A DNA stretch of 64,000 bases from a bacterium (GTDB taxonomy: Bacteria > Patescibacteriota > JABMPQ01 > JBDRIV01), in the NCBI GenBank assembly GCA_043815505.1, contig JBDRIV010000002.1, positions 502,943-566,942 of the forward strand, written 5' to 3'. The notes under the pieces are model-generated. The model was not told where the DNA came from. It made no database searches and worked only from the letters and a program-made list of their open reading frames with translations. Shown one piece after another: positions 9,259-48,853 of this stretch; within the stretch, counting starts at the first letter, position 1; every line of letters starts with the position of its first letter. Both the position numbers and the translations under genes were made by a program.

Positions 9259-10357
9259 ATGCAAGATTTAAAGATAAGAATTACCCAATTAAAAAAACGG
9301 ATACTCGCTTTGCGAGAAAGTCTTTGATTTGGATTCTATACGTATTAAAATAGAAGAGTTACAAATTAAGACTTCAGCCCCGGATTTTTGGCAAGATGCT
9401 GGCATTGCTAAAACTATAATGCAAGAATTGGATACTAAAAAGGATTTAGTTAACACCTGGGATATAATAGAACAAAATATTTCAGAGTTGGAGGACTTTT
9501 TAAAACTTGAGGATGCTGATTTAGAAGAAGAAATTGCCAGCAAATTAACTGCTACTGAAGAAAAACTAAAGGTTATTGAATTAGAATTAAGACTGAGCGG
9601 ACCTTATGATAAAGGTAGCGCTTTGTTATTTATTCACTCTGGAACTGGTGGCATTGATGCTCAGGATTTTGCCGAAATGCTAATGAGAATGTATTTACGT
9701 TTTGCCGAAAACAAAAACTGGAAAGCAGTTGAACTAGAAAAATCAAAAGGGGATGAGGCGGGAATAAAAAGTGTCAGTTTAGAAATTATTGGAAATCTAG
9801 CTTACGGATATTTGAAAGGTGAGAATGGAATTCACAGACTGGTTAGAATGTCGCCCTTTGATGCTAATAAACAACGTCACACATCATTTGCTTTGGTTGA
9901 AGTTATTCCGGTAATAGAGAATGCTAAAGAATTAGAATTAAAGAACGACGATTTAAGAATAGATTCATTTAAAGCTTCTGGACATGGTGGTCAAGGAGTA
10001 AACACAACCGATTCAGCTGTTCGCATCACACATTTACCATCAGGAATAGTTGTAAGTTGCCAGAACGAAAGATCACAGATGCAAAATAAAGAAAAAGCTC
10101 TGCAAATACTAAAATCCAAGTTGTTAATTAAAAATGAAGAGAAAGAAGCTAAGCAGAAAGCAGAGCTTCGAGGGGAACATCAAGAGGCAACTTGGGGAAA
10201 TCAAATCAGATCTTATGTTATGCAACCATATCAAATGATAAAGGATCATCGAACAAAATACGAAACTGTGGAAATTGATAAGGTTTTAAATGGTGATATT
10301 ATGCCCTTTTTAGAAGAATATTTAAACTGGAGTTTAAAAAATGATAAAAATAAATAA
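9259..10357 (+). CDS. prfB: Peptide chain release factor 2, with programmed +1 ribosomal frameshift (frame shifts at 9325)
   Basis: The upstream short ORF starts at ATG 9259 (MQDLKIRITQLKKRILALRESL) and ends at CTT TGA (9322-9327). Shifting +1 there joins the 9329..10357 frame (DSIRIKIEELQ...). The body carries the RF2 signatures SPFDANKQRHTSFA and GGQGVNTTDSAVRITHLPSGIVV (GGQ motif). This is the classic autoregulatory CUU-UGA shift site. The ORF track reports only the downstream part, from a TTG start. Confidence 0.85.
9322..9328 (+). promoter_or_regulatory. RF2 programmed +1 frameshift site CTT TGA T
   Basis: CTTTGAT at 9322-9328. The 0-frame stop TGA sits in a weak context. A purine-rich SD-like GAGAAAG lies 3-4 nt upstream (9313-9319), as in canonical prfB recoding sites. 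Confidence 0.75.
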
Positions 10358-12356: not shown

Positions 12357-12431
12357 TGGGGAGTAGCCAAGTGGTAAGGCAATAGGTTCTGGTCCTATGA
12401 TTCGGGGGTTCGAATCCCTCCTCCCCAGCCA
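12357..12431 (+). tRNA. tRNA-Gln (anticodon CUG), CCA encoded
   Basis: TGGGGAGTAGCCAAGTGGTAAGGCAATAGGTTCTGGTCCTATGATTCGGGGGTTCGAATCCCTCCTCCCCAGCCA. U1:A72 as in bacterial tRNA-Gln, D-arm as in E. coli tRNA-Gln, anticodon stem ATAGG/CCTAT with loop TTCTGGT (CTG), T-arm GGGGG-TTCGAAT-CCCTC, discriminator G, then CCA. Confidence 0.85.
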
Positions 12432-12435
12432 TACT

Positions 12436-12540
12436 TCGCTAAAGCTACGTAGTGGCAAGCCATAATCAAATAAAGCCATGCAGAGTGATAAGCTATAACC
12501 AAATAAAGCTACGTAGTGGCAGGGCCATATCAAAAATACA
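12436..12540. repeat. Two imperfect ~30-bp direct repeats (AAAGCTACGTAGTGGCArGsCCATAwyCAAA) spaced ~64 bp apart, immediately 3' of tRNA-Gln
   Basis: Copy A 12441-12472, copy B 12505-12537. Each contains the palindrome CTACGTAG. Shorter ATAAGCTAT motifs recur at 12330 and 12489. Confidence 0.6.
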
Positions 12541-12558
12541 TATTGAAGAGTAATATTT

Positions 12559-12837
12559 ATGTGTTATGTGTATATACTCTTTAGTAAGAAAGCTAATAAA
12601 TTCTATTATGGTTATACAAACAATCTAAGGAAAAGAATAGAATTGCACAACAATGGTAGGGTAAGATCTACTATGCCATATAGACCATGGAAATTAATGC
12701 AGTATTGTGCATTTATTGATGGCAAGAAAGCTAAAGAGTTTGAAAAATATTTAAAAACTGGTTCTGGGAAAGCTTTTGCATACAAAAGATTTCTAAATGT
12801 AGCTTTAGTGAAGTATGTCGGAGAGGAGAAAAGGTAA
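12559..12837 (+). CDS. Small GIY-YIG nuclease superfamily protein (UPF0213/COG2827-like)
   Basis: 92 aa. MCYVYILFSKKANKFYYGYTNNLRKRIELHN shows the GIY...YIG-type motif (YVYIL...YYGYT), with a conserved Arg and Glu downstream. Sits between tRNA-Gln and a duplicated copy of the tRNA 3' end. Confidence 0.65.
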   Translation: MCYVYILFSKKANKFYYGYTNNLRKRIELHNNGRVRSTMPYRPWKLMQYCAFIDGKKAKEFEKYLKTGSGKAFAYKRFLNVALVKYVGEEKR

Positions 12838-12864
12838 TCCGAAGCATTTATGCGAAGGATACCC

Positions 12865-12877
12865 TCCTCCCCAGATT
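12865..12877 (+). repeat. 13-bp exact direct repeat of the tRNA-Gln 3' end (CCCTCCTCCCCAG); att-like duplication
   Basis: CCCTCCTCCCCAG occurs at 12415-12427 (tRNA T-stem/acceptor 3' strand) and again at 12865-12877. Flanking bases extend the similarity to 16 of 18. A GC-rich 13-mer in AT-rich DNA is very unlikely by chance (on the order of 1e-3 in 64 kb on both strands). Confidence 0.6.
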
Positions 12878-13007
12878 TTGAATATTTTTATCTTGTTATA
12901 TATACACCTATTTAATAATTCCATCATTTTTGACAACTTTATAATAATAAGTAATAATGTAACCAAGAGAATTTGAAGGCTCCCTACATGTATTGGAAGG
13001 AGGTGAA

Positions 13008-13251
13008 GATGATGGTTACTTCACATCGTTTTGGTGCGACGGATAAAAGCGATACCATGCGGGCTATTATTGGTTGTCTGATTGTAATCCTGATTCTTGG
13101 AATTCTGTGCTTGTACTGGCATCAAAAAGGCATGTTGTTTGGCACTCCAAAAGCATCTCAAATTCAGGAGATTGTATATGAAACTTTCACGACAAGCAAT
13201 AATGCAGGTTGTTCACCCTTCCAAATACCATTCCAAAATGAACTGGCATAG
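13008..13251 (+). CDS. Hypothetical small membrane protein (~80 aa) with strong SD
   Basis: GGAGGTG 6-8 nt upstream of ATGATG. One TM (AIIGCLIVILILGILCLYW). No recognisable family. Confidence 0.35.
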
Positions 13252-13788
13252 CCATATTATCACGGAATGGATAAGGAGCTCTTATAGAATCAATTGGCTT
13301 TGGCTGATTCTACAAGGGCTCCCCAAATTTTCGATCTAAATCGATTTTTTATTTGCCAAAGCCAAAGTAATTTTCTAATTGCAATTTGTAATTTTAAAAA
13401 TTGTGTGTATAATTTTACACGCTAGTTCATTAAAAACAAGCATTTCAAAATAAACGGAGGTACAAAAAATTGAGAATGAAAGATTATAAATCACCAAAAC
13501 CAGTTGATTCAGGAAAAGCTCTCACTTATAATAATCAGTTTCTTCTTTCCTTCCCCGAAAATTACGCAGAGCCTACAAGTAAGGAAAAAGGGGAAGAAAA
13601 GGAAAAGTAGAAAACATTTATTTCTTGCTATCATTCGCGTTGTAAAATGCGTCTGATAGCCATTTTTATTTGCCAAATAATACCTTCTTTGCTAACCTGA
13701 AAATAGAAACGTTCCTTAATAAATTGGGAAATATTGTAATAAATTTGTATTAGTTGGTGATAACTTAAAATAGAAGGAGGATTAACAA

Positions 13789-14022
13789 ATGTCAAAAAAA
13801 ACCTACAAAAAACCGGAAATTATTACTGAAGCATCATTTCAAACACCTCCTCCGTGTGACATTGGTGGACGACACTTCACCAGTGCTTATGACACATTTC
13901 TCGGTCATTGGGGAAATCGGAATGAATTGACACACGGCACTGGAATAGAATTAGGTCCACGCAATTCACCATGTATTTATACTTATTTGTGTGGCAATTG
14001 GAGTTATTGGTCTCATAAATAA
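13789..14022 (+). CDS. Hypothetical small Cys/Trp/Gly-rich protein (77 aa)
   Basis: AAGGAGG 7 nt upstream of ATG. MSKKTYKKPEIITEASFQTPPPCDIGGRHF...LCGNWSYWSHK. No recognisable family. Confidence 0.35.
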   Translation: MSKKTYKKPEIITEASFQTPPPCDIGGRHFTSAYDTFLGHWGNRNELTHGTGIELGPRNSPCIYTYLCGNWSYWSHK

Positions 14023-14111
14023 GGAGTAAAAATACTATAAGGAAAGGACTTTGACGTAAAAAATTTTGAGAAAGAAGACCTTTAAAAACAGATTTATTGG
14101 GAGGACAATAT

Positions 14112-14300
14112 ATGAGCAATGGTGAACTTGTAATTGAAATTTCTGGTATAAATAGAATACTTGAAAGGAGATCGGAAGAAGAAATTGTAATTGTAGAACA
14201 GGGACTGCAAAGGCTTTTTCCCAATAAGGGAGAAAAAAGGAGACCAACCCGAACGACCAACCGCAATTATTTGCGTAAAAAATTATTTATGAGAAGATAA
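14112..14300 (+). CDS. Hypothetical small basic protein (62 aa)
   Basis: GGGAGG 7 nt upstream of ATG 14112. Arg/Lys-rich C-terminus (KRRPTRTTNRNYLRKKLFMRR). Followed by an intrinsic terminator. Confidence 0.3.
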   Translation: MSNGELVIEISGINRILERRSEEEIVIVEQGLQRLFPNKGEKRRPTRTTNRNYLRKKLFMRR

Positions 14301-14382
14301 TAATCCTGTTAAAACCCCACCCAGAGACATTAACTCCGATGGTTTATCTCATTCTTCTTTCTTCTAATTGCTCATTAAGAGC

Positions 14383-14425
14383 TTAGCTGTGCGTTTACTA
14401 AAACCTGACCCTCGCACAGCCCTTT
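14383..14425 (+). terminator. Rho-independent terminator
   Basis: GCTGTGCG-(loop)-CGCACAGC stem followed by CCTTTTTTTATTTT. Confidence 0.55.
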
Positions 14426-14692
14426 TTTTATTTTCAATTTAAGTGTATACTAACATTGTTCTAAGCACGGGTTTGGAATACAACAATAAAAATGTATTAA
14501 GCTCTTTTACTCGCAACTATTTACTTATCCCCCGTAAGTATGTAGTTGCATTTTTTATCAAAAATTGATAAATTAGGAACATATTTGAACATTTAAAGGG
14601 AGCAAAATAATGCCTGTTGGCATATCCTAGAAAGGAGGTTAAAGGATCTTAGACAAAAGAGTATGATATGTAAGTAAAAAGGAGGTAGTATA

Positions 14693-14824
14693 ATGCGAAG
14701 ACCAAAACCGGGTGATTGGGTAGATTATTATTGTGAAGATCCAGAAACACAACCACCTCCAAAAAAGGAAACAAAACCTGTAAGCTTTAATCCTAATGAT
14801 CATCCACCCCTAAAACAGGAATAA
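14693..14824 (+). CDS. Hypothetical Pro-rich micro-protein (43 aa); not in the ORF track
   Basis: AAGGAGG 7 nt upstream of ATG 14693. MRRPKPGDWVDYYCEDPETQPPPKKETKPVSFNPNDHPPLKQE, stop TAA 14822-14824. Confidence 0.3.
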   Translation: MRRPKPGDWVDYYCEDPETQPPPKKETKPVSFNPNDHPPLKQE

Positions 14825-15105
14825 CATTTTATGCTCTAAAACAATATAAATAATGACCAGGGGGTGACACTGCTGATTCAATACTCAAAACTCCCAAAAC
14901 TCAATTTCTACGTTTTACTTGTATACCTCCTGGTCAGAACTTTTGCTCTTCTTGGCTAAGAATAAGTTTATATTGGATAGCGCGATATTATACTGCAAAT
15001 CCCATAAAAACTTTACCTAGCCATTTTATTTGTTAAATTATAAATCATATGCTACTTTAATAATATATTGGAGTTCTTTAAATAAAATATATACGAGGTG
15101 ATAAA

Positions 15106-15315
15106 ATGAAACCAAATATATTAAAGCAAGGTAAGCAGAATAAATTTGTTAAAACAAATTTAGTGAAACCTGCAGGTTTTCCCGTCATGAATATAATGAT
15201 GTGCTCAGAACCTCATATATCGAGTTCTGACAAAAAACATTTTCCTAATTCCGCTGCCCCAAGTATTAAAAATTCTCTAGGATTGCCCGATATTCTTTCA
15301 CCAATTGAAAAATGA
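15106..15315 (+). CDS. Hypothetical small protein (69 aa)
   Basis: GAGGTG SD upstream. No family assignable. Confidence 0.3.
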   Translation: MKPNILKQGKQNKFVKTNLVKPAGFPVMNIMMCSEPHISSSDKKHFPNSAAPSIKNSLGLPDILSPIEK

Positions 15316-15328
15316 AATGGAGGAAGTT

Positions 15329-15514
15329 ATGAATAATAATCTTACAGAATTTTCCGACACGGAACGAATTAATTATTTGCTTAAAGCAAACAATTGTAAA
15401 GGAGATTGGGTTGCAGGTGATAAGAAGGACTCGAAAGAATGGATATCTTATTCAAAACCAGATTTGCATTTTAAAGAGAAAGCCGTTAAAAACATATTTC
15501 ATCCATCATCTTAA
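15329..15514 (+). CDS. Hypothetical small protein (~61 aa)
   Basis: GGAGG 7 nt upstream of ATG 15329 (internal Met of the 15305 ORF). MNNNLTEFSDTERINYLLKANNCKGDW... Confidence 0.3.
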   Translation: MNNNLTEFSDTERINYLLKANNCKGDWVAGDKKDSKEWISYSKPDLHFKEKAVKNIFHPSS

Positions 15515-15625
15515 TTCCAAAATTCGGTCATGTTCTAGTAACTTTGAAGTCATCTTTTTATAGATACTTCATAAGAACCTGACCTTTTTCTTTACTTAAA
15601 TTCGAGAGTTTGATTAAATAAGATT

Positions 15626-16258
15626 ATGAATTGGAATAAAAGTTATCGCATTCTTGAAATGTTAAAGAAATCTCCTTTGCGAGATGCTTTTAAGATTGGC
15701 AATAATTTTAAAATTACTTCACAAAAAAGATATCAACTTCTACTCACAATTACAGTAATGTTGGTTTTAATGTTTGTATTTTATGCCTTTTCTCATCAGG
15801 CACCCGATTACACTGATGCTGTAGTAATTGATTATAATAGCTTTGTGGAAGATATTGTTCGCGAGAGTCCTGATGCCAACGGCTATTATTTTGTCACAAC
15901 TGTTATTGATGGTGACACTTTTTATGTTGACGATAATGGTACAGCCGAAAGTGTACGTTTAATTGGAATTGATACGCCAGAAATTGCTAAACAAAAATCA
16001 GAAATTCAAGAAGGTGCATTGGAAGCTTCAAATTTTATGAAGGATTTGGTGGAAGGAAAATGGGTGTATTTAGAAGCTGATGAATCGCAAGGGGATAGAG
16101 ACCAGTATGGCAGATTACTCCGTTATGCATTTCTAGAAGATGGAACCCACATAAATTTGCTTTTATTGAAAGAAGATTTGGCAGTTGAGTACACCTTCGA
16201 CAAACCCTACAAGTATCAGGAGGAATTTCAAAAAGAGCAAAATGAAAATATAAAATAG
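15626..16258 (+). CDS. Membrane-anchored thermonuclease (staphylococcal nuclease / SNase-like)
   Basis: 210 aa. N-terminal TM (LLLTITVMLVLMFVFYAF). SNase core VIDGDTFYVDDNGTAESVRLIGIDTPEIAK...DQYGRLLRYAF...LLLLKEDLAVEY carries the catalytic Arg/Glu/Asp/Tyr pattern of micrococcal nuclease. Confidence 0.8.
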   Translation: MNWNKSYRILEMLKKSPLRDAFKIGNNFKITSQKRYQLLLTITVMLVLMFVFYAFSHQAPDYTDAVVIDYNSFVEDIVRESPDANGYYFVTTVIDGDTFYVDDNGTAESVRLIGIDTPEIAKQKSEIQEGALEASNFMKDLVEGKWVYLEADESQGDRDQYGRLLRYAFLEDGTHINLLLLKEDLAVEYTFDKPYKYQEEFQKEQNENIK

Positions 16259-16383
16259 TAAATACTTATGTTTTAAGACATTTATAATATATATAAAGAA
16301 ATAAATAACATTTTGAAATAACAGTTGATATAAATATTTGGTGGTAGACATTTAGCACTATTGCTTAAGTCTGTGCTGCAATT

Positions 16384-16695
16384 TTAGCTCTCGGGGGGAC
16401 ATTCGTAGTATTTAAGATCAACAATATATCTCAGGCAGTCGATAATTATAAAAACAGAGTTCTTCACATGTATAATTATATAAATGATTTTAGAACAACG
16501 TACAAAAATTATAGGAAGCACCAACAAAAGACCGAAGAATGAAATAAAAACTATAGCAACGATATTACCTATTATGGAAACTGTTCTGCGTGCTTTACTT
16601 TGTGGGTGATTGATTATTACTTCATCAATCAAATCCTGCTTATCTTCATTTACTTTAATCATTGCAGAATAAACAATGCTTAGCACAATACCCAA
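16384..16695 (-). CDS. Hypothetical small membrane protein
   Basis: 103 aa with two predicted TM helices. No family assignable. Start codon uncertain. Confidence 0.3.
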   Translation of the reverse strand: MGIVLSIVYSAMIKVNEDKQDLIDEVIINHPQSKARRTVSIIGNIVAIVFISFFGLLLVLPIIFVRCSKIIYIIIHVKNSVFIIIDCLRYIVDLKYYECPPES

Positions 16696-16879
16696 AACAT
16701 ACCAATAAATAAATATAGCGATTCTCCTTATTTTGATGTAAAGAACAATCTAAAGATAGATATATATTAGCAACATCAATTATTTTTGCAAACTCATTCT
16801 CCGCATTGACAAATTCAATAAAATAGTATAATTTGTTGAGTTAGATAAATCGTACACTTTACATAAAGGGGGTAAGAAA

Positions 16880-17371
16880 ATGCCTGAACAGCTATGTTTT
16901 CATGATTCTGAACTTACAATTAATAAAAAGCCATTTGGAATCAAAACACTTTTTGGATCAAGAATTATTTCTTTCAAACTTGAATGCAGGCACGATGTAC
17001 CTATTGTAATTGCAAAGGTAGCTGAATTTATGAATCCTAGTGGAGACATTAAGAAAGAGCTTAAAAAGGCTAGAGCTCTGTCTCGTTTTTTCAGAAAGGA
17101 AGAGGCGAGATACCTTAGTGCTGGTCTTGAAACTGAATATGATGATGAAATTGATAGACTGCGTCAACAGGTTGCCAGCATAACCAAAACTGAATTAGCA
17201 GGAGTTCATTCAGAATATCCAAGGCATAACCGAATATATGGCCATTTGTATGGACAACTGCTCGGAAGAAAAAGAAAAGAACTTATAGCCAGATTGATTT
17301 CCGAAGGCAGAATCAAATATAGCCTTGAAGAACTCAAGTCTGTAAAACTCGTTCGCACCCAAGATTTCTAG
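16880..17371 (+). CDS. Hypothetical protein (163 aa)
   Basis: Strong SD AAAGGGGGTAAG upstream. No recognisable domain. Ends at a bidirectional terminator. Confidence 0.4.
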   Translation: MPEQLCFHDSELTINKKPFGIKTLFGSRIISFKLECRHDVPIVIAKVAEFMNPSGDIKKELKKARALSRFFRKEEARYLSAGLETEYDDEIDRLRQQVASITKTELAGVHSEYPRHNRIYGHLYGQLLGRKRKELIARLISEGRIKYSLEELKSVKLVRTQDF

Positions 17372-17384
17372 GGTGCTTTTTTTT
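17355..17384. terminator. Bidirectional intrinsic terminator
   Basis: GCACCC-AAGATTTCTA-GGGTGC followed by TTTTTTTT. Lies between the convergent genes 16880..17371 (+) and 17383..18306 (-). Confidence 0.6.
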
Positions 17385-18306
17385 ATTTCAAGGGAGTTGC
17401 TAATTCAACTCTTTTAGAATCCCTGGCAATGGCAATCATAGACAAAACTAAAACGATAGCACCCAACCACTGGGTTGAGGTTAGAGTTTCATTTAAGAAA
17501 AAAGTACCCACTAAAACTGCTGAAACTGGCCAAGCTAATTCTAAAAATGTAGAACGTGAAGCTGGAACCCTTTGCAAACCAAAATAGTAAACTGCTAGGG
17601 CAACAAGTCCTGTGGAAAAAACAATAGCTAAAATATACATCCATTGATTTGGATTTACATTTGTGATTTGATCAGTTTGACCAAGAAAGGGTAAAAACAG
17701 AAAGGCAAAGATTGGCGTAATACCAAATCTTATAGCTGTAATTTGCAAAAAGCTGGTGCCTTTCAAAGCATATTTTGAATAAGCGGTAGAAATTCCCCAA
17801 GCCGCAGCAGCTCCTAAAGCAAACAAAATTGCATAAACCGTTTCTTTCCCAGTAGCAAAATTAACTTTGAGATCAGGAAAGGAAACAAAGTAAGCTGCCA
17901 CCAAGGCTAGAGGAGCAGCTGTTATAAAATATTTAGTTATTGGTTCCCGCAATAAAAAGAAAGCTGCCAGCACTGCAAACAGAGGTTGTAATTGTTGTAA
18001 TAAAACTACAACTGAGAAAGGAATAAAATTAACTTTCATTAAAGCAGTGGTATAAAATACTGTTCCCAATGCTCCAGAAAGTAAGGAAACCAGAGCAATG
18101 GCGCCCCATTGTTTACCTGAAAGTTTTTTAAAATTCTTACCGACAAATAAAACTATCGGCAACAAAAACATAAAACCAAGCAAATGCTCCCAAAAAACAA
18201 CCACTGTACTTGGCAAATCAAAAAGCTGCCTTCTTAAAAGTCCGTCCATACTCCATAGAACGGCCGCTAAGACAACAGCAACAGCACCAAAGTTTTTATA
18301 CTTCAT
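17383..18306 (-). CDS. DMT-superfamily transporter (EamA-like, 10 TM)
   Basis: Two EamA-type repeats (AVLWSMDGLLRRQL...; ...AAAAWGISTAYSKYAL...). Start set at the ATG 18306 (MKYKNFGAVAVVL) preceded by AAAGGAAT, rather than the longer 18342 start. Confidence 0.7.
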   Translation of the reverse strand: MKYKNFGAVAVVLAAVLWSMDGLLRRQLFDLPSTVVVFWEHLLGFMFLLPIVLFVGKNFKKLSGKQWGAIALVSLLSGALGTVFYTTALMKVNFIPFSVVVLLQQLQPLFAVLAAFFLLREPITKYFITAAPLALVAAYFVSFPDLKVNFATGKETVYAILFALGAAAAWGISTAYSKYALKGTSFLQITAIRFGITPIFAFLFLPFLGQTDQITNVNPNQWMYILAIVFSTGLVALAVYYFGLQRVPASRSTFLELAWPVSAVLVGTFFLNETLTSTQWLGAIVLVLSMIAIARDSKRVELATPLK

Positions 18307-46794: not shown

Positions 46795-47846
46795 AAGTTT
46801 TATTCATAGCCCGCACTTTTTCCGATGCACCTGGAGGTATGCAACAGGTGTCTCGTAACTTGCTTGAAAATTTACCGGTTGAAAAAATAAGTATTTTAAA
46901 TAAATCAGTTAGTCGTCTATCTTTAGTATGGTTTTTGCCATATTCTTTTTTTATGGGATTAATTTTTGGAGCTTCGGTGGATTTGATTTATTTAACAGAT
47001 GGTGTGATGGCGCCAGTGGGAAGACTACTGGGGAAAATTTATGGAAAACCGGTGGTGGCGACCATGCATGGTTTAGAATTAACTTACAATAACTGGTTCT
47101 ATAATTTATTTGTGAAAAGATCTTTTGCCAAGCTCACAAAAATAATTTGTGTTAGTAATTTTACCAAAAGCTTGTGTTTACAAAACGGCATAGCAGAAGA
47201 TAAATTAATAACTATTCCTTCTGGTTATTCAAAAATAAAATTGTACGAAAAAAATGAATGTCGTCAGAGATTAATTTCTGATAATATTGATTTAAAAGAT
47301 CACTTCACCTTAATAACAGTTGGTCGCTTGGTAAAACGCAAAGGTGTTTTATGGTTTCTGCAAAATGTTTTTCCTAAACTTGGGCCAGATATGAAATATT
47401 TAATTATTGGCGATGGTCCAGAACACGAAAGCATCCGCAAATTCATCTGGCAGGAAAAATTAAAAAATAGGGTTTATTTAATAAAAAATTGTAGTAATAC
47501 AAAAAGAGATATTTTATTGTCAGCCGCCGATCTATTTCTAATGCCAAATATTAAAGTAGCTGGTGACGTTGAGGGTTTTGGATTAGTAGCGCTAGAAGCC
47601 GCTTTAACTCTAAAACCAATTGTGGCATCAGCTGTTGACGGTTTAACATCAGCTGTCAGTGACCAAATGGGAATCTTGTGTCCAGAGAAAGACACCACCT
47701 GCTTTGTAAATAGTATTAATAAATTTCTAAACGAAGAATACTATGATCAGTTTGCTCGGTCAGCCTATAATTACGTTAAAACTACTTATACTTGGGAAAA
47801 AACTATCAATAACTATCTGAATTGTTTTAAGGAGGTAATTTTATGA
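46791..47846 (+). CDS. Glycosyltransferase family 4
   Basis: 351 aa. GDGPEHESIRKFI... and VEGFGLVALEAALTLKPIVASAVDGL. Confidence 0.75.
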   Translation: MKVLFIARTFSDAPGGMQQVSRNLLENLPVEKISILNKSVSRLSLVWFLPYSFFMGLIFGASVDLIYLTDGVMAPVGRLLGKIYGKPVVATMHGLELTYNNWFYNLFVKRSFAKLTKIICVSNFTKSLCLQNGIAEDKLITIPSGYSKIKLYEKNECRQRLISDNIDLKDHFTLITVGRLVKRKGVLWFLQNVFPKLGPDMKYLIIGDGPEHESIRKFIWQEKLKNRVYLIKNCSNTKRDILLSAADLFLMPNIKVAGDVEGFGLVALEAALTLKPIVASAVDGLTSAVSDQMGILCPEKDTTCFVNSINKFLNEEYYDQFARSAYNYVKTTYTWEKTINNYLNCFKEVIL

Positions 47847-48853
47847 AAATTGTATTTATCTATCCCTTTTTAGTTGATCCTTATGGTGGCGAAAGACATT
47901 TAGCAAAGCTCACCAGTACTTTGGCTGAAATGGGCCATAAAGTTTATGTTGTAACCTTGCGGACCGCTAAACCGGTCAATGACATGATGTCTAAAAAGGT
48001 GGTAATTAAATCTCTTGATTTAAAATTGTCTAAAAATTTGTTTCGCCGAACTTTCAAATCAACCACGGAGGCGAAGGCTTTAGCTAAAAGAGCAGCTCGT
48101 ATTAAAGCCAAATTTTATTGTGGTATGGGTTGGCAAACAACCATTGCTTTAAACAGTTTGAGTAAAGATTTTGGTATTAAAAAATCAAAATTAATTTATT
48201 ATTGTTTAGAACCGCCGCGCTTTCTGCATGATTTAAAAAAAGAACAGAATTCTTTGGTGCGTTTTGTTTCTCCCCTCCTGCGCAATAGAGATTACAAAAA
48301 TGTTAGAAATCTAAAAAATATTATTGCTAATAGTCAATGGACAAAAGATCAAATTAGAAATATTTACAATTTAGATGTCCCAGTTATTGTTCCTGGTATT
48401 GAAAAGAAAAGATTTGATAAATATGATAAAGAAAAGTTAAGGAAAGAACTTGATTTTCCCGAGCGTACTAAAGTTTATATTACCACCTCAAAACTTCATA
48501 AACGTAAAGGAATTGATAAGGCGATTTCATATTTTAGTAGAAACGCTAAAGGTTTAGAACATTTTTATATAATTGGTGATGGTCCAGAAAAGGCAAAATT
48601 AAAAAAATTGGCTAAGCATTCTCGCCTAGCAAATAATATTCATTTCTTAGGCCGACTAAAAGATCGACAAGTAGAAAAATATATTAAAGCTTCAGATATT
48701 TTCATTTTTACTGCCAAAAATGAACCTTATGGAATTGCTCCCCGCGAAGCGGTGTATGCTGGCCTTGAAGTAAAACCCAACAAGGTTTTGGGTCCAATTC
48801 TTTCGTGGGAAGGTTCCACTAAAAAGTTTGTAAAATATTTAGAGTCTTTATGA
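47843..48853 (+). CDS. Glycosyltransferase family 4-like (GT-B)
   Basis: 336 aa. N-terminal MKIVFIYPFLVDPYGGERHLAKLTSTLAEMGHKVYVVT is a GT4 N-domain. C-terminal EPYGIAPREA is a degenerate EX7E. Confidence 0.65.
   Translation: MKIVFIYPFLVDPYGGERHLAKLTSTLAEMGHKVYVVTLRTAKPVNDMMSKKVVIKSLDLKLSKNLFRRTFKSTTEAKALAKRAARIKAKFYCGMGWQTTIALNSLSKDFGIKKSKLIYYCLEPPRFLHDLKKEQNSLVRFVSPLLRNRDYKNVRNLKNIIANSQWTKDQIRNIYNLDVPVIVPGIEKKRFDKYDKEKLRKELDFPERTKVYITTSKLHKRKGIDKAISYFSRNAKGLEHFYIIGDGPEKAKLKKLAKHSRLANNIHFLGRLKDRQVEKYIKASDIFIFTAKNEPYGIAPREAVYAGLEVKPNKVLGPILSWEGSTKKFVKYLESL

Follow-up and report, generated by a model that had tools for sequence, protein, structure and literature searches.

Seven small orphan ORFs with strong Shine-Dalgarno sites form an island beside a tRNA gene in a Patescibacteria genome

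A 2.7-kb island of small ORFs (12880-15620) lay beside a tRNA gene in the 64-kb window, i.e., the whole stretch of DNA that was analysed, which comes from an uncultured member of the Patescibacteria. Its flanks were as the preliminary description had given them, with tRNA-Gln(CTG) and a GIY-YIG ORF upstream and a membrane-anchored SNase downstream; the core cell genes adjoining the island were RF2, FtsEX, a DUF59 protein and an EamA transporter. The flanking features, with the Shine-Dalgarno (SD) sites where relevant, were as follows:

12357-12431, + strand: tRNA-Gln(CTG), identified with ARAGORN and Rfam; the end of an RF2-FtsE-FtsX-tRNA-Gln block, with the island downstream
12429-12874, + strand: GIY-YIG unit between tRNA and island; ORF at 12559-12837, with a 13-nt direct repeat, CCCTCCTCCCCAG, on both sides
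15626-16258, + strand: membrane-anchored SNase; N-terminal membrane segment, host-like codon pattern (0.095 bits/nt), no SD
16880-17371, + strand: p163, a 163-aa orphan; TATAAT 47 nt upstream, SD AAGGGGGT at -12.1 kcal/mol

The SNase stands outside the SD-led set, from which it was excluded because of its host-like codon pattern and lack of an SD. The att-like repeat, drawn from the 3' end of the tRNA, had copies at 12416 and 12862 only and enclosed nothing beyond the 446-bp GIY-YIG unit, leaving the island outside. The proposed accessory origin next to a tRNA, on the other hand, fitted a synteny comparison with relatives. The RF2-FtsE-FtsX-tRNA-Gln block was syntenic in about 55 Patescibacteria loci, and the island occupied the breakpoint immediately after it: in all of these loci the nearest downstream ORF of 100 aa or more began 4-701 bp after tRNA-Gln, against 3195 bp here, and no downstream gene was common to this locus and the related ones. 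Base composition gave no sign of a boundary, as G+C was 30-38% in the island and about 32% around it, without a compositional jump. Coding density in the island was only about 49%.

Seven ORFs of 43-80 aa were delimited on the + strand of the island. GenBank annotates a CDS for every one of them, in each case as a 'hypothetical protein', with a different start in three cases:

s1, 13009-13251, + strand: 80 aa, one membrane-spanning segment (residues 19-37); GenBank start 12988 (MFH1509032, 87 aa)
s2, 13470-13610, + strand: 46 aa, hydrophilic, TTG start; GenBank start ATG 13476 (MFH1509033, 44 aa)
s3, 13789-14022, + strand: 77 aa, with 3 Cys, 3 Trp and 8 Gly (MFH1509034)
s4, 14112-14300, + strand: 62 aa, pI 11.1, basic C-terminal tail (MFH1509035)
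s5, 14693-14824, + strand: 43 aa, 23% proline (MFH1509036)
s6, 15106-15315, + strand: 69 aa, basic, Pro/Ser-rich (MFH1509037)
s7, 15329-15514, + strand: 61 aa; GenBank start 15317 (MFH1509038, 65 aa)

It had been stated that no ORF here exceeded about 90 aa. This held for the + strand, where the longest frame was 92 aa (from a far-upstream TTG at 12973), but failed for the - strand, where an ORF of 129 aa (13877-14266) ran antisense to s3 and s4. Since it had no SD and poor coding scores, the latter was judged to be probably spurious.

The seven peptides were unrelated to one another. A hydrophobic segment was found in s1 (Kyte-Doolittle 2.84 over 19 residues) and in none of the other six products. 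Pooled, the island proteins were richer than host proteins in proline (8.0% vs 3.3%) and cysteine (2.1% vs 0.7%). AlphaFold2 single-sequence models were of low confidence (pLDDT 43.7 and 58.3), and the six hydrophilic products, rich in Pro, Cys, Arg and His, are probably largely disordered.

The preliminary description had counted six or more short SD-led ORFs, and all seven ORFs proved to carry a strong SD, 5-9 nt before the start codon. The motif was GGAGG in six cases and GAGGTGAT in the other:

SD of s1, 12997-13006, + strand: AAGGAGGTGA, a 10-nt complement of the canonical 16S rRNA 3' end; -16.0 kcal/mol
SD of s2, 13456-13461, + strand: GGAGGT; -10.9 kcal/mol
SD of s3, 13773-13780, + strand: AAGGAGGA; -11.7 kcal/mol
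SD of s4, 14099-14105, + strand: GGGAGGA; -10.2 kcal/mol
SD of s5, 14679-14686, + strand: AAGGAGGT; -13.0 kcal/mol
SD of s6, 15095-15102, + strand: GAGGTGAT; -10.2 kcal/mol
SD of s7, 15319-15323, + strand: GGAGG, beginning 4 nt past the s6 stop codon; -9.3 kcal/mol

All seven thus showed the complementarity of at least 5 nt to the 16S rRNA 3' end, placed 5-10 nt upstream, by which a canonical SD is recognised. Duplex energies ranged from -9.3 to -16.0 kcal/mol, as calculated with the canonical anti-SD, which may not be that of the host. By comparison, -6 kcal/mol was reached by only 2 of 56 long ORFs in the window, making the difference between island and long genes highly significant (7/7 vs 2/56, Fisher p = 6.5e-8), and 2.35% of all ATG triplets reached -8 kcal/mol. 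GGAGG itself occurred 7 times in the island where 0.94 were expected (Poisson p = 6e-5); the occurrence at 14634 was followed by no start codon. The position of the s7 SD, so soon after the s6 stop codon, suggests that s6 and s7 are a translationally coupled pair.

The reality of the ORFs was evaluated with 500 dinucleotide-preserving shuffles of the island, in which SD-led ORFs of at least 43 aa were counted. The shuffles gave a mean of 0.10 (maximum 2), while the island had seven on the + strand and none on the - strand. The lengths of the open frames were also beyond chance, with a joint probability of about 5e-16 at 7.7% stop codons per codon. For each ORF the called frame had the highest coding score among six frames, by a margin of about 11-44 bits. 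The scores themselves were positive in six ORFs (0.016-0.051 bits/nt) and negative in s1 (-0.033 bits/nt), where spurious ORFs had a mean of -0.066 and a 95th percentile of 0.027; the pooled island score of 0.014 bits/nt fell at the bottom of the host range (median 0.082). The island ORFs are real small genes and not chance ORFs.

Several putative signals of transcription were identified around these genes:

12930-12958, + strand: promoter-like site of unit 1; TTGACA, 17-nt spacer, AATAAT, with 11/12 matches and an implied leader of about 45 nt (consensus match only)
13386-13413, + strand: promoter-like site of unit 2; TTGTAA, 16-nt spacer, TATAAT, the -10 box lying 56 nt before the start codon
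13275-13354, + strand: terminator region after s1; hairpins at 13275-13322 and 13331-13344, then TTTTTTATTT (z = -2.4)
13627-13672, + strand: terminator after s2; hairpin at 13627-13660, then a U-run (z = -4.8)
14386-14433, + strand: intrinsic terminator after s3-s4; 8-bp G+C-rich stem at 14386-14420, then CCTTTTTTTATTTT (z = -3.3)
14455-14556, + strand: hairpin unit without an SD-led ORF; a pair of hairpins, with a U-run after the second (14513-14549) (z = -3.6)
14854-14936, + strand: long hairpin after s5, without a clear U-run (z = -2.1)
15526-15593, + strand: terminator after s6-s7; hairpin at 15526-15584, then TTTTTCTTT (z = -2.4)

Folding thus supported a hairpin and U-run downstream of s1, s2, s4 and s7 (z = -2.4 to -4.8), and the terminator sites after s1 and s2 had TTTTTATTTGCCAAA in common. 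The terminator that had earlier been placed at 14383-14425 was real, consisting of the hairpin at 14386-14420 and its U-run. With these terminators as boundaries the island falls into about five transcription units, and s4 is probably co-transcribed with s3. The unit at 14455-14556, for which Rfam gave no match, may represent a small RNA or else a former cassette now devoid of an ORF. Promoter-like sites, of which those of s1 and s2 matched the consensus well, were not enriched in the region, where 21 were counted against 19.9 in shuffles.

Genes elsewhere in the window began differently. In operon-first host genes the distance from TATAAT to the ATG was either 6-9 nt or about 26 nt, as opposed to the 47-56 nt that separated the -10 box from the start codon in island genes, and the ribosomal-protein genes L27 and L9 in the window both lacked an SD. 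Judged by the 56 long genes of the window, the rest of the genome consists of leaderless genes, genes with short SD-less leaders and operon-coupled genes, without SD:anti-SD initiation. Given that genes native to the host dispense with an SD, the SD sites of the island are themselves the anomaly, a point that the preliminary description had missed. An SD can nonetheless work in this clade, since ftsZ had a conserved AAGGAGGT in three relatives and the SD-like stimulator of prfB frameshift sites was kept in about 50; at this genome's own prfB frameshift site the stimulator had been lost. No rRNA gene was found in the 64-kb window.

Homologues were sought in whole protein databases for s3 (1.84 billion representatives) and s4 (5.8 billion clusters, word-indexed), and in phages, plasmids, IMG/VR, 97 related loci and profile libraries for s1, s2, s5, s6 and s7. 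No relative of any of the seven was detectable in the databases covering it, and purifying selection can therefore not be inferred. Searches of phage (50,697) and plasmid (72,556) records by blastn and tblastn revealed no similarity to the island; IMG/VR scans of s1, s4, s6, s7 and p163 matched nothing, and the island ORFs had no match in PADLOC, Pfam, NCBIfam or PHROGs. Nor did a Pfam search of nearly all long ORFs in the 64-kb window disclose an integrase, RiPP maturase, peptide exporter or phage gene.

Taken together, these observations lead us to lean, by a modest degree, towards an accessory island that is specific to the lineage and made up of genuine genes for small proteins, arranged in self-contained units with SD-dependent initiation in an otherwise SD-independent genome. 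There would be about five such units, (s1), (s2), (s3-s4), (s5) and (s6-s7). Each would start with a putative sigma-70-like promoter and a leader of about 40-55 nt, in which the canonical SD observed here is complementary over up to 10 nt to the 16S rRNA 3' end; one or two of the ORFs of 43-80 aa would follow, and then, in the four units where one was observed, a hairpin and U-run terminator. Translation would begin by SD:anti-SD pairing, unlike the rest of the genome, and would yield one single-pass membrane peptide and six hydrophilic peptides. At a guess, the peptides would act as small modulators, of the type represented by 'morons' of mobile elements or by anti-defence genes, and not as secreted antimicrobials. 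The island was probably acquired horizontally, although neither an integrase nor a bracketing repeat nor a donor came to light; acquisition from a donor or mobile element with SD-led genes would be the most economical origin.

Several known systems resemble the island in part. Prophage morons are reportedly autonomous promoter-ORF-terminator units between temperate phage genes, in work associated with Hendrix and Juhala. Like the island, they comprise small, unrelated and usually orphan ORFs in the same direction and in an accessory location, each with its own ribosome-binding site and, in the island's case putatively, its own promoter and terminator. Morons, however, are single units inserted between phage genes, while the island has five or six units in tandem and no surrounding prophage, integrase, phage gene or similarity to phage records. 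Anti-defence and anti-CRISPR arrays share with it tandem, co-oriented ORFs of 40-160 aa that look strongly expressed and have no detectable homologues, but the island lacks an adjacent aca-like HTH regulator, a demonstrable mobile element and a match to a known family. Integron cassette arrays and CALINs likewise contain small, co-oriented, mostly orphan ORFs with imperfect palindromes between them; cassettes are promoterless, whereas the island units would carry promoters and terminators themselves. When both strands of 12433-17400 were scanned by regular expression, no attC core sites (RYYYAAC ... GTTRRRY) came up, and no IntI tyrosine recombinase was found among the long ORFs searched in the 64 kb; a CALIN does not strictly require IntI. 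Class II bacteriocin and small-peptide loci of Firmicutes are also arrays of 40-80-aa ORFs with a strong SD each, but the island is without leader or signal sequences, exporter, immunity genes or family matches, and the sole ABC system near it was FtsEX. Finally, a few strong SDs in an SD-poor genome are familiar from rpsU, which is an SD-led exception in the SD-poor Bacteroidia, and from ftsZ in relatives; these are conserved housekeeping genes, whereas the SD set here is an orphan cluster in a window whose ribosomal-protein genes are SD-less.

The alternative that survived best, though we regard it as unlikely, is that the island is an inert recent import, in which the signals and ORFs of an SD-using donor are still intact but useless here and heading for decay, perhaps as the host ribosome no longer uses or has the anti-SD. 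The orphan status of the ORFs, their weak and atypical coding scores and the low coding density would agree with this, as would the hairpin unit that has no SD-led ORF, the GGAGG without a start codon and the loss of the stimulator at the host prfB site. The anti-SD motif is, moreover, reportedly absent from about half of Parcubacteria (PMC9297842). Against it, the combination of SD, start codon and ORF was intact in all seven cases, when unselected frames of 43-80 codons close fast in A+T-rich DNA; G+C and GC3 were host-like, which makes a very recent transfer from a distant donor less likely; and 2.7 kb of junk is not what a reduced genome (567-kb contig) would be expected to keep.

A more doubtful proposition is that the island exposes a second translation-initiation channel in a Parcubacterium otherwise rid of the Shine-Dalgarno mechanism. 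In one version, the host may have kept its anti-SD to serve a small SD-led set, made up of the orphans, p163 and a handful of further genes, much as in the SD regulon linked to bS21 in Flavobacteria. In the other, the anti-SD may have been lost and the genes built for the ribosomes of a donor or of the episymbiont's bacterial host, the organism being presumed to be an episymbiont living on another bacterium.

A toxin-type locus is improbable. On this view s1 would encode a type I-like toxin acting on membranes, or s3-s4 and/or s6-s7 would be unrecognised toxin-antitoxin or abortive-infection pairs. The single strong membrane segment of s1, the two tight bicistronic pairs, the very basic s4 and the accessory setting with nucleases alongside could be read in this way. 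Yet none of the PADLOC and family searches gave a match, s1 at 80 aa is longer than typical type I toxins, and promoter-like matches on the - strand, from which an antisense RNA would be expected, were at chance level, with no Rfam match.

The preliminary description had also offered a cluster of secreted peptides or bacteriocins, to which RiPP precursors may be added, and this now appears very improbable. The ORFs are small and s3 is Cys/Trp/Gly-rich; by eye, its YKKPEI recalls RiPP leader recognition motifs and it has GG at 26-27. The residues ahead of that GG, again by eye, misfit the double-glycine leader consensus, and the products, of which s1 alone had a hydrophobic segment, showed neither a Sec signal nor a convincing double-glycine leader. 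These matched no bacteriocin or RiPP family, and their mutual unrelatedness also speaks against the proposal. Maturation enzymes, which had been suggested as a further line of search, were not found: the searched long ORFs of the 64 kb included no C39 peptidase exporter, radical-SAM, YcaO or lanthipeptide-type enzyme, LanB/C/M, lasso cyclase, RRE protein or immunity-like gene.

That a frameshifted wreck, either of one or two ordinary genes or of a prophage or ICE, makes up the region had also been considered and is scarcely credible, although the low coding density, the adjoining tRNA and the GIY-YIG nuclease upstream would fit it. A six-frame Pfam search of 12840-15640 returned nothing at E <= 1 and hence no pseudogene remnant; tblastn of 3050 ORFs from 97 related loci against the region gave noise only; the ORFs stayed separate when stop codons were recoded; and the phage, plasmid and IMG/VR comparisons were all empty, with no integrase or phage gene at hand. 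Such a wreck would not, in any case, leave an SD at the right spacing and a terminator for each fragment. Chance can be dismissed as the source of these ORFs in A+T-rich non-coding DNA, for all their weak coding scores and want of homologues, given the shuffle counts, the single strand on which all seven lie and the called frame being the best of six throughout.

Patescibacteria genomes contain many small proteins of unknown function, which are usually dismissed as possible annotation noise. At this locus the start signals provide an internal test, as orphans with SDs, long leaders and terminators stand among SD-less surrounding genes; the SD signals flag the island ORFs as foreign or specially regulated. 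Should an SD prove to be the mark of a recent import in lineages of this kind, it would allow horizontal transfer to be detected cheaply where base composition is uninformative, and the question is raised of whether, and for which genes, SD-poor or anti-SD-less Parcubacteria still use SD pairing. Beyond the SNase, p163 was built like the island genes, with respect to both the position of its TATAAT and the strength of its SD, and may be one more gene of this accessory region.

The pattern of long ORFs in this densely coding window (~32% G+C) was interrupted across an island at 12880–15620, where seven short ORFs on the forward strand, s1–s7, were found instead; there was no jump in G+C content at the island.

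Open reading frames of the island
s1: 13009–13251, + strand, 80 aa
s2: 13470–13610, + strand, 46 aa, TTG start
s3: 13789–14022, + strand, 77 aa
s4: 14112–14300, + strand, 62 aa
s5: 14693–14824, + strand, 43 aa
s6: 15106–15315, + strand, 69 aa
s7: 15329–15514, + strand, 61 aa
Antisense ORF to s3/s4: 13877–14266, − strand, the only ORF of the island exceeding 100 aa

All seven short ORFs are CDS in GenBank (MFH1509032–038, 'hypothetical protein'), where the starts differ for s1, s2 and s7. The antisense ORF was regarded as spurious because it had no Shine-Dalgarno (SD) site and poor coding scores. With stop codons at 7.7% per codon, the seven given starts would all stay open for these lengths with a joint probability of ~5e-16. 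Dinucleotide-preserving shuffles of the island sequence (n = 500) contained SD-led ORFs of 43 aa or longer with a mean of 0.10 and a maximum of 2, against 7 observed on the forward strand and 0 on the reverse. For coding scores, a 3-periodic Markov model was fitted to the long genes of the window; the best-scoring of six frames was the called frame for each of the seven ORFs, by a margin of ~11–44 bits, and the score was positive for six of them (0.016–0.051 bits/nt). For spurious ORFs embedded within real genes, the mean score was -0.066 and the 95th percentile 0.027. A chance origin of the ORFs was effectively excluded by the shuffle, open-length and frame tests, and the seven SD-led short ORFs were confirmed on stronger grounds than the preliminary description had stated. 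Their coding scores lay at the lower edge of the host range or beneath it (s1–s7 pooled, 0.014), as were those of the nearby GIY-YIG ORF (0.021), p163, an orphan ORF downstream of the island (0.035), and an ORF at 16384–16695 on the reverse strand (0.002).

The SD sites themselves are the anomaly, and this the preliminary description had missed. An SD was present 5–9 nt upstream of the start in all seven cases, comprising GGAGG in six and GAGGTGAT in one, while that of s1 was the full ten-base AAGGAGGTGA. There were 7 occurrences of GGAGG in the island, against 0.94 expected. Duplex energies with the canonical anti-SD ranged from -9.3 to -16.0 kcal/mol; just 2.35% of ATG triplets in the window reached -8 kcal/mol. 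Only 2 of 56 long ORFs across the 64 kb had an SD-like site at or below -6 kcal/mol, compared with 7/7 in the island (Fisher p = 6.5e-8 for SD presence), and the picture for long genes was unchanged when alternative starts within the first 40 codons were allowed. The two exceptions were a GT4 glycosyltransferase at 47843 and p163 at 16880; the ribosomal-protein genes L27 (33795) and L9 (35854–36300, − strand) had no SD. At four gene starts (18546, 28660, 44378 and 54969) a TATAAT-like -10 box stood 6–9 nt before the ATG, which implies that these operon-first genes are effectively leaderless. The remaining operon-first host genes had TATAAT ~26 nt before the ATG and no SD; for the island genes and p163, the best -10 box was 47–56 nt upstream and was followed by an SD. 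The GT4 gene (47843–48853) belongs to a large polysaccharide-synthesis cluster at roughly 37.8–63.8 kb, and its SD (AAGGAGGT, -13.5 kcal/mol) is situated inside the end of the upstream gene. The 163-aa p163 (16880–17371) shares the design of the island genes, with a strong SD (-12.1 kcal/mol) and a TATAAT box at 47 nt upstream.

Terminators were sought by folding the spacers for a stable hairpin followed by a U-run.

Predicted terminators and an ORF-less unit of the island
13275–13322 and 13331–13344, + strand, hairpins after s1, with U-run
13627–13660, + strand, hairpin after s2 (z = -4.8), with U-run
14386–14420, + strand, hairpin after s4, with U-run
14455–14556, + strand, ORF-less unit of ~100 nt, two stable hairpins with a U-run after the second, no SD-led ORF
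15526–15584, + strand, hairpin after s7, with U-run

The structure after s4 corresponded to the clean intrinsic terminator of the preliminary description, while a long hairpin 3' of s5 had no clear U-run. The positions of hairpins and U-runs give the layout (s1)(s2)(s3-s4)(ORF-less unit)(s5)(s6-s7); only 4 nt separated the s6 stop codon from the start of the s7 SD. The ORF-less unit may be a small RNA, or else a cassette emptied of its ORF, and no match to a known RNA family was found in Rfam, for this unit included. Promoter consensus matches were found upstream of s1 (TTGACA-17-AATAAT) and s2 (TTGTAA-16-TATAAT), but since such matches were no commoner than in shuffled sequence, the island promoters are putative. 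Within the s5 leader, a stretch at 14596–14638 held a mini-ORF of six codons (MPVGIS; ATG at 14611, stop at 14629–14631), preceded by AAAGGGAG and followed directly by a perfect AAAGGAGGT at 14631–14639 with no start codon in range; these may represent an upstream ORF with a regulatory role, or a start that has decayed. Downstream of s1, the three stop codons in its frame (13249–13473) were all TAG; with TAG read as sense, the frame would extend over 166 aa (12973–13473) and stop at the very start of s2. This is probably coincidence, as the same stretch holds the terminator hairpins and the promoter-like site of s2.

The clade as a whole makes little use of SDs. Among 60 related Patescibacteria loci (715 kb), an SD at or below -9 kcal/mol preceded 4.3% of long ORFs, 7.4% of small gap ORFs and 2.5% of spurious embedded ORFs; SD-led small ORFs occurred about once per 20 kb, compared with seven in 2.7 kb here. 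SD use is nonetheless selective rather than absent, because ftsZ carried a conserved SD in three related loci (L045 4163–5431, L001 7476–8720 and L053 7050–8315; AAGGAGGT/AAGGGGGT, -11.8 to -13.3 kcal/mol) where the adjoining genes had none. The prfB gene (9260–10357) displayed a classical programmed +1 frameshift, with ORF0 running from the ATG at 9260 to CTT TGA at 9326–9331; the TTG listed as its 'start' at 9329 is therefore an artefact of the ORF list. In ~50 relatives an SD-like (A/G)GAGGA (-5.8 to -9.3 kcal/mol) preceded the CTT TGA shift site by 4 nt, pairing with an upstream TCCTC in a hairpin, and the shift site read CTTTGAC. In this genome, GCGAGA (-3.0 kcal/mol) took the place of the SD-like element and the stop context was TGAT. 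A published survey (Tsurumaki et al., RNA 2022, PMC9297842) detected the anti-SD motif in just 48% of Parcubacteria. The 64 kb window contained no rRNA. For SD pairing in this organism the evidence is mixed: ftsZ and prfB of its relatives favour it, while its own prfB and the published survey oppose it. The sole comparable cluster of SD-led small ORFs among 97 related loci was a tight trio of ORFs for small membrane proteins (49, 37 and 45 aa), which is conserved between two MAG loci (L002 3628–4096 and L041 2545–2857). Apparent clusters in L017 and L045 were spurious, being inside long genes.

Core genes preceded the island (MurJ, LepA, DivIC, PPIase, RF2, FtsE, FtsX and a DUF59 Fe-S assembly factor), while a membrane-anchored SNase (15626–16258, + strand), an EamA transporter, a PD-(D/E)XK nuclease, an HD hydrolase and an ArsR regulator followed it. 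The order RF2-FtsE-FtsX-tRNA-Gln(CTG) was kept in about 55 Patescibacteria loci, but no gene downstream of tRNA-Gln was common to this genome and those loci; therefore, tRNA-Gln marks a synteny breakpoint. From tRNA-Gln to the next ORF of 100 aa or more, the distance was 4–701 bp in all ~55 loci and 3195 bp here, to the SNase, which had no SD and a fully host-like coding score (0.095 bits/nt). On this comparison, the gene-poor stretch after tRNA-Gln is unique among the available data. An accessory origin, as put forward in the preliminary description, fits this tRNA-associated breakpoint.

No match to s1–s7 was found in Pfam, PHROGs, NCBIfam or PADLOC, and sequence searches of the PDB returned nothing meaningful. 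Valid whole-database protein searches covered s3 and s4. A full HMMER search of 1.84 billion representatives with s3 returned itself and two repeat proteins only: P0008 (E = 7.5e-14 over 12 stretches) and P0009 (E = 1.7e-5). Both were rejected as homologues, as each stretch scored only 25–28 bits pairwise and the low E-values arose through summation over many near-identical repeat copies; multi-stretch matches of short queries to tandem-repeat proteins such as these need caution. P0009 also had a NUMOD-like motif, 'GYHFTS', resembling 'GRHFTS' in s3, which is a lead only. A search of 5.8 billion clusters with s4 returned only itself. Neither tblastn of s1–s7 nor blastn of the whole region produced a match in 50,697 phage and 72,556 plasmid records; likewise, there were none in IMG/VR for s1, s4, s6, s7 and p163, or in the 97 related loci (1.19 Mb) for s1–s7 by tblastn. 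The nearest FtsX relatives in genome and metagenome collections, at 28–37% identity, were from Paceibacterota, Minisyncoccales and other Patescibacteria MAGs, and exact matching of the s3, SNase and DUF59 proteins led to no second assembly.

The predicted products were unrelated to one another when examined for paralogy. One strong membrane segment was present in s1 (residues 19–37), while s2–s7 were hydrophilic with N-termini that were not signal-like. Pooled, the peptides were rich in Pro (8.0%; host proteins, 3.3%), Cys, His and Arg and poor in Leu, Ile, Ala and Val. Single-sequence modelling of s3 and s4 with AlphaFold2 gave low-confidence structures, not good enough for fold comparison.

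Orphan small-gene islands beside tRNAs are common. What is new here, and testable, is that the start signals of the island follow an initiation mode unlike the rest of an SD-independent CPR genome. We consider it somewhat probable that these are real small-protein genes at a tRNA breakpoint, each individually expressed and acquired horizontally from an SD-using source. Their mRNAs would carry a leader and a canonical SD and end at an intrinsic terminator; as the host's own genes are not built this way, horizontal acquisition from such a source explains the contrast most simply. Prophage morons and the small orphan anti-defence arrays carried by mobile elements offer the nearest parallels, which extend no further than unit architecture. 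The main rival, an import that is still intact but useless, is a good deal less probable. For individual ORFs, toxin-type peptides are unlikely, having gained no positive support. Nor was there any for secreted peptides or RiPPs, which seem very improbable: leaders and family matches were absent from the island ORFs, as were maturases and exporters from the searched ORFs of the window, and the YKKPEI motif and GG of s3 are resemblances only to RiPP or leader features.

The preliminary description had also proposed a decayed prophage or ICE, but no integrase or phage gene was found among the searched ORFs of the window. The 13-nt repeat CCCTCCTCCCCAG, from the 3' end of tRNA-Gln, occurred only at 12416 and 12862, and so brackets a GIY-YIG unit alone and not the island. 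This unit of 446 bp contained a 92-aa GIY-YIG ORF, a 19-nt inverted repeat (12430–12448/12799–12817) and 33-nt tandem repeats (12451–12516). GIY-YIG fragments were also seen just downstream of tRNA-Gln in two related loci (L062 and L008), so the unit may be a recurrent tRNA-Gln-associated GIY-YIG element. An integron cassette array was rejected as there were no attC cores. The other candidate of the preliminary description, the wreck of a pseudogenised large gene, was effectively excluded, since six-frame comparison of 12840–15640 with Pfam (stops as X) had no hit at E ≤ 1, the 3050 ORFs of related loci matched 12433–17400 at noise level only, and reading TGA, TAG or TAA as sense opened no large ORFs; all three stop codons are in use by the host.

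Beyond the SNase, the reverse-strand ORF at 16384–16695 encoded 103 aa with one membrane segment and had no SD. It is apparently unannotated in GenBank, as no locus tag falls between those of its neighbours.
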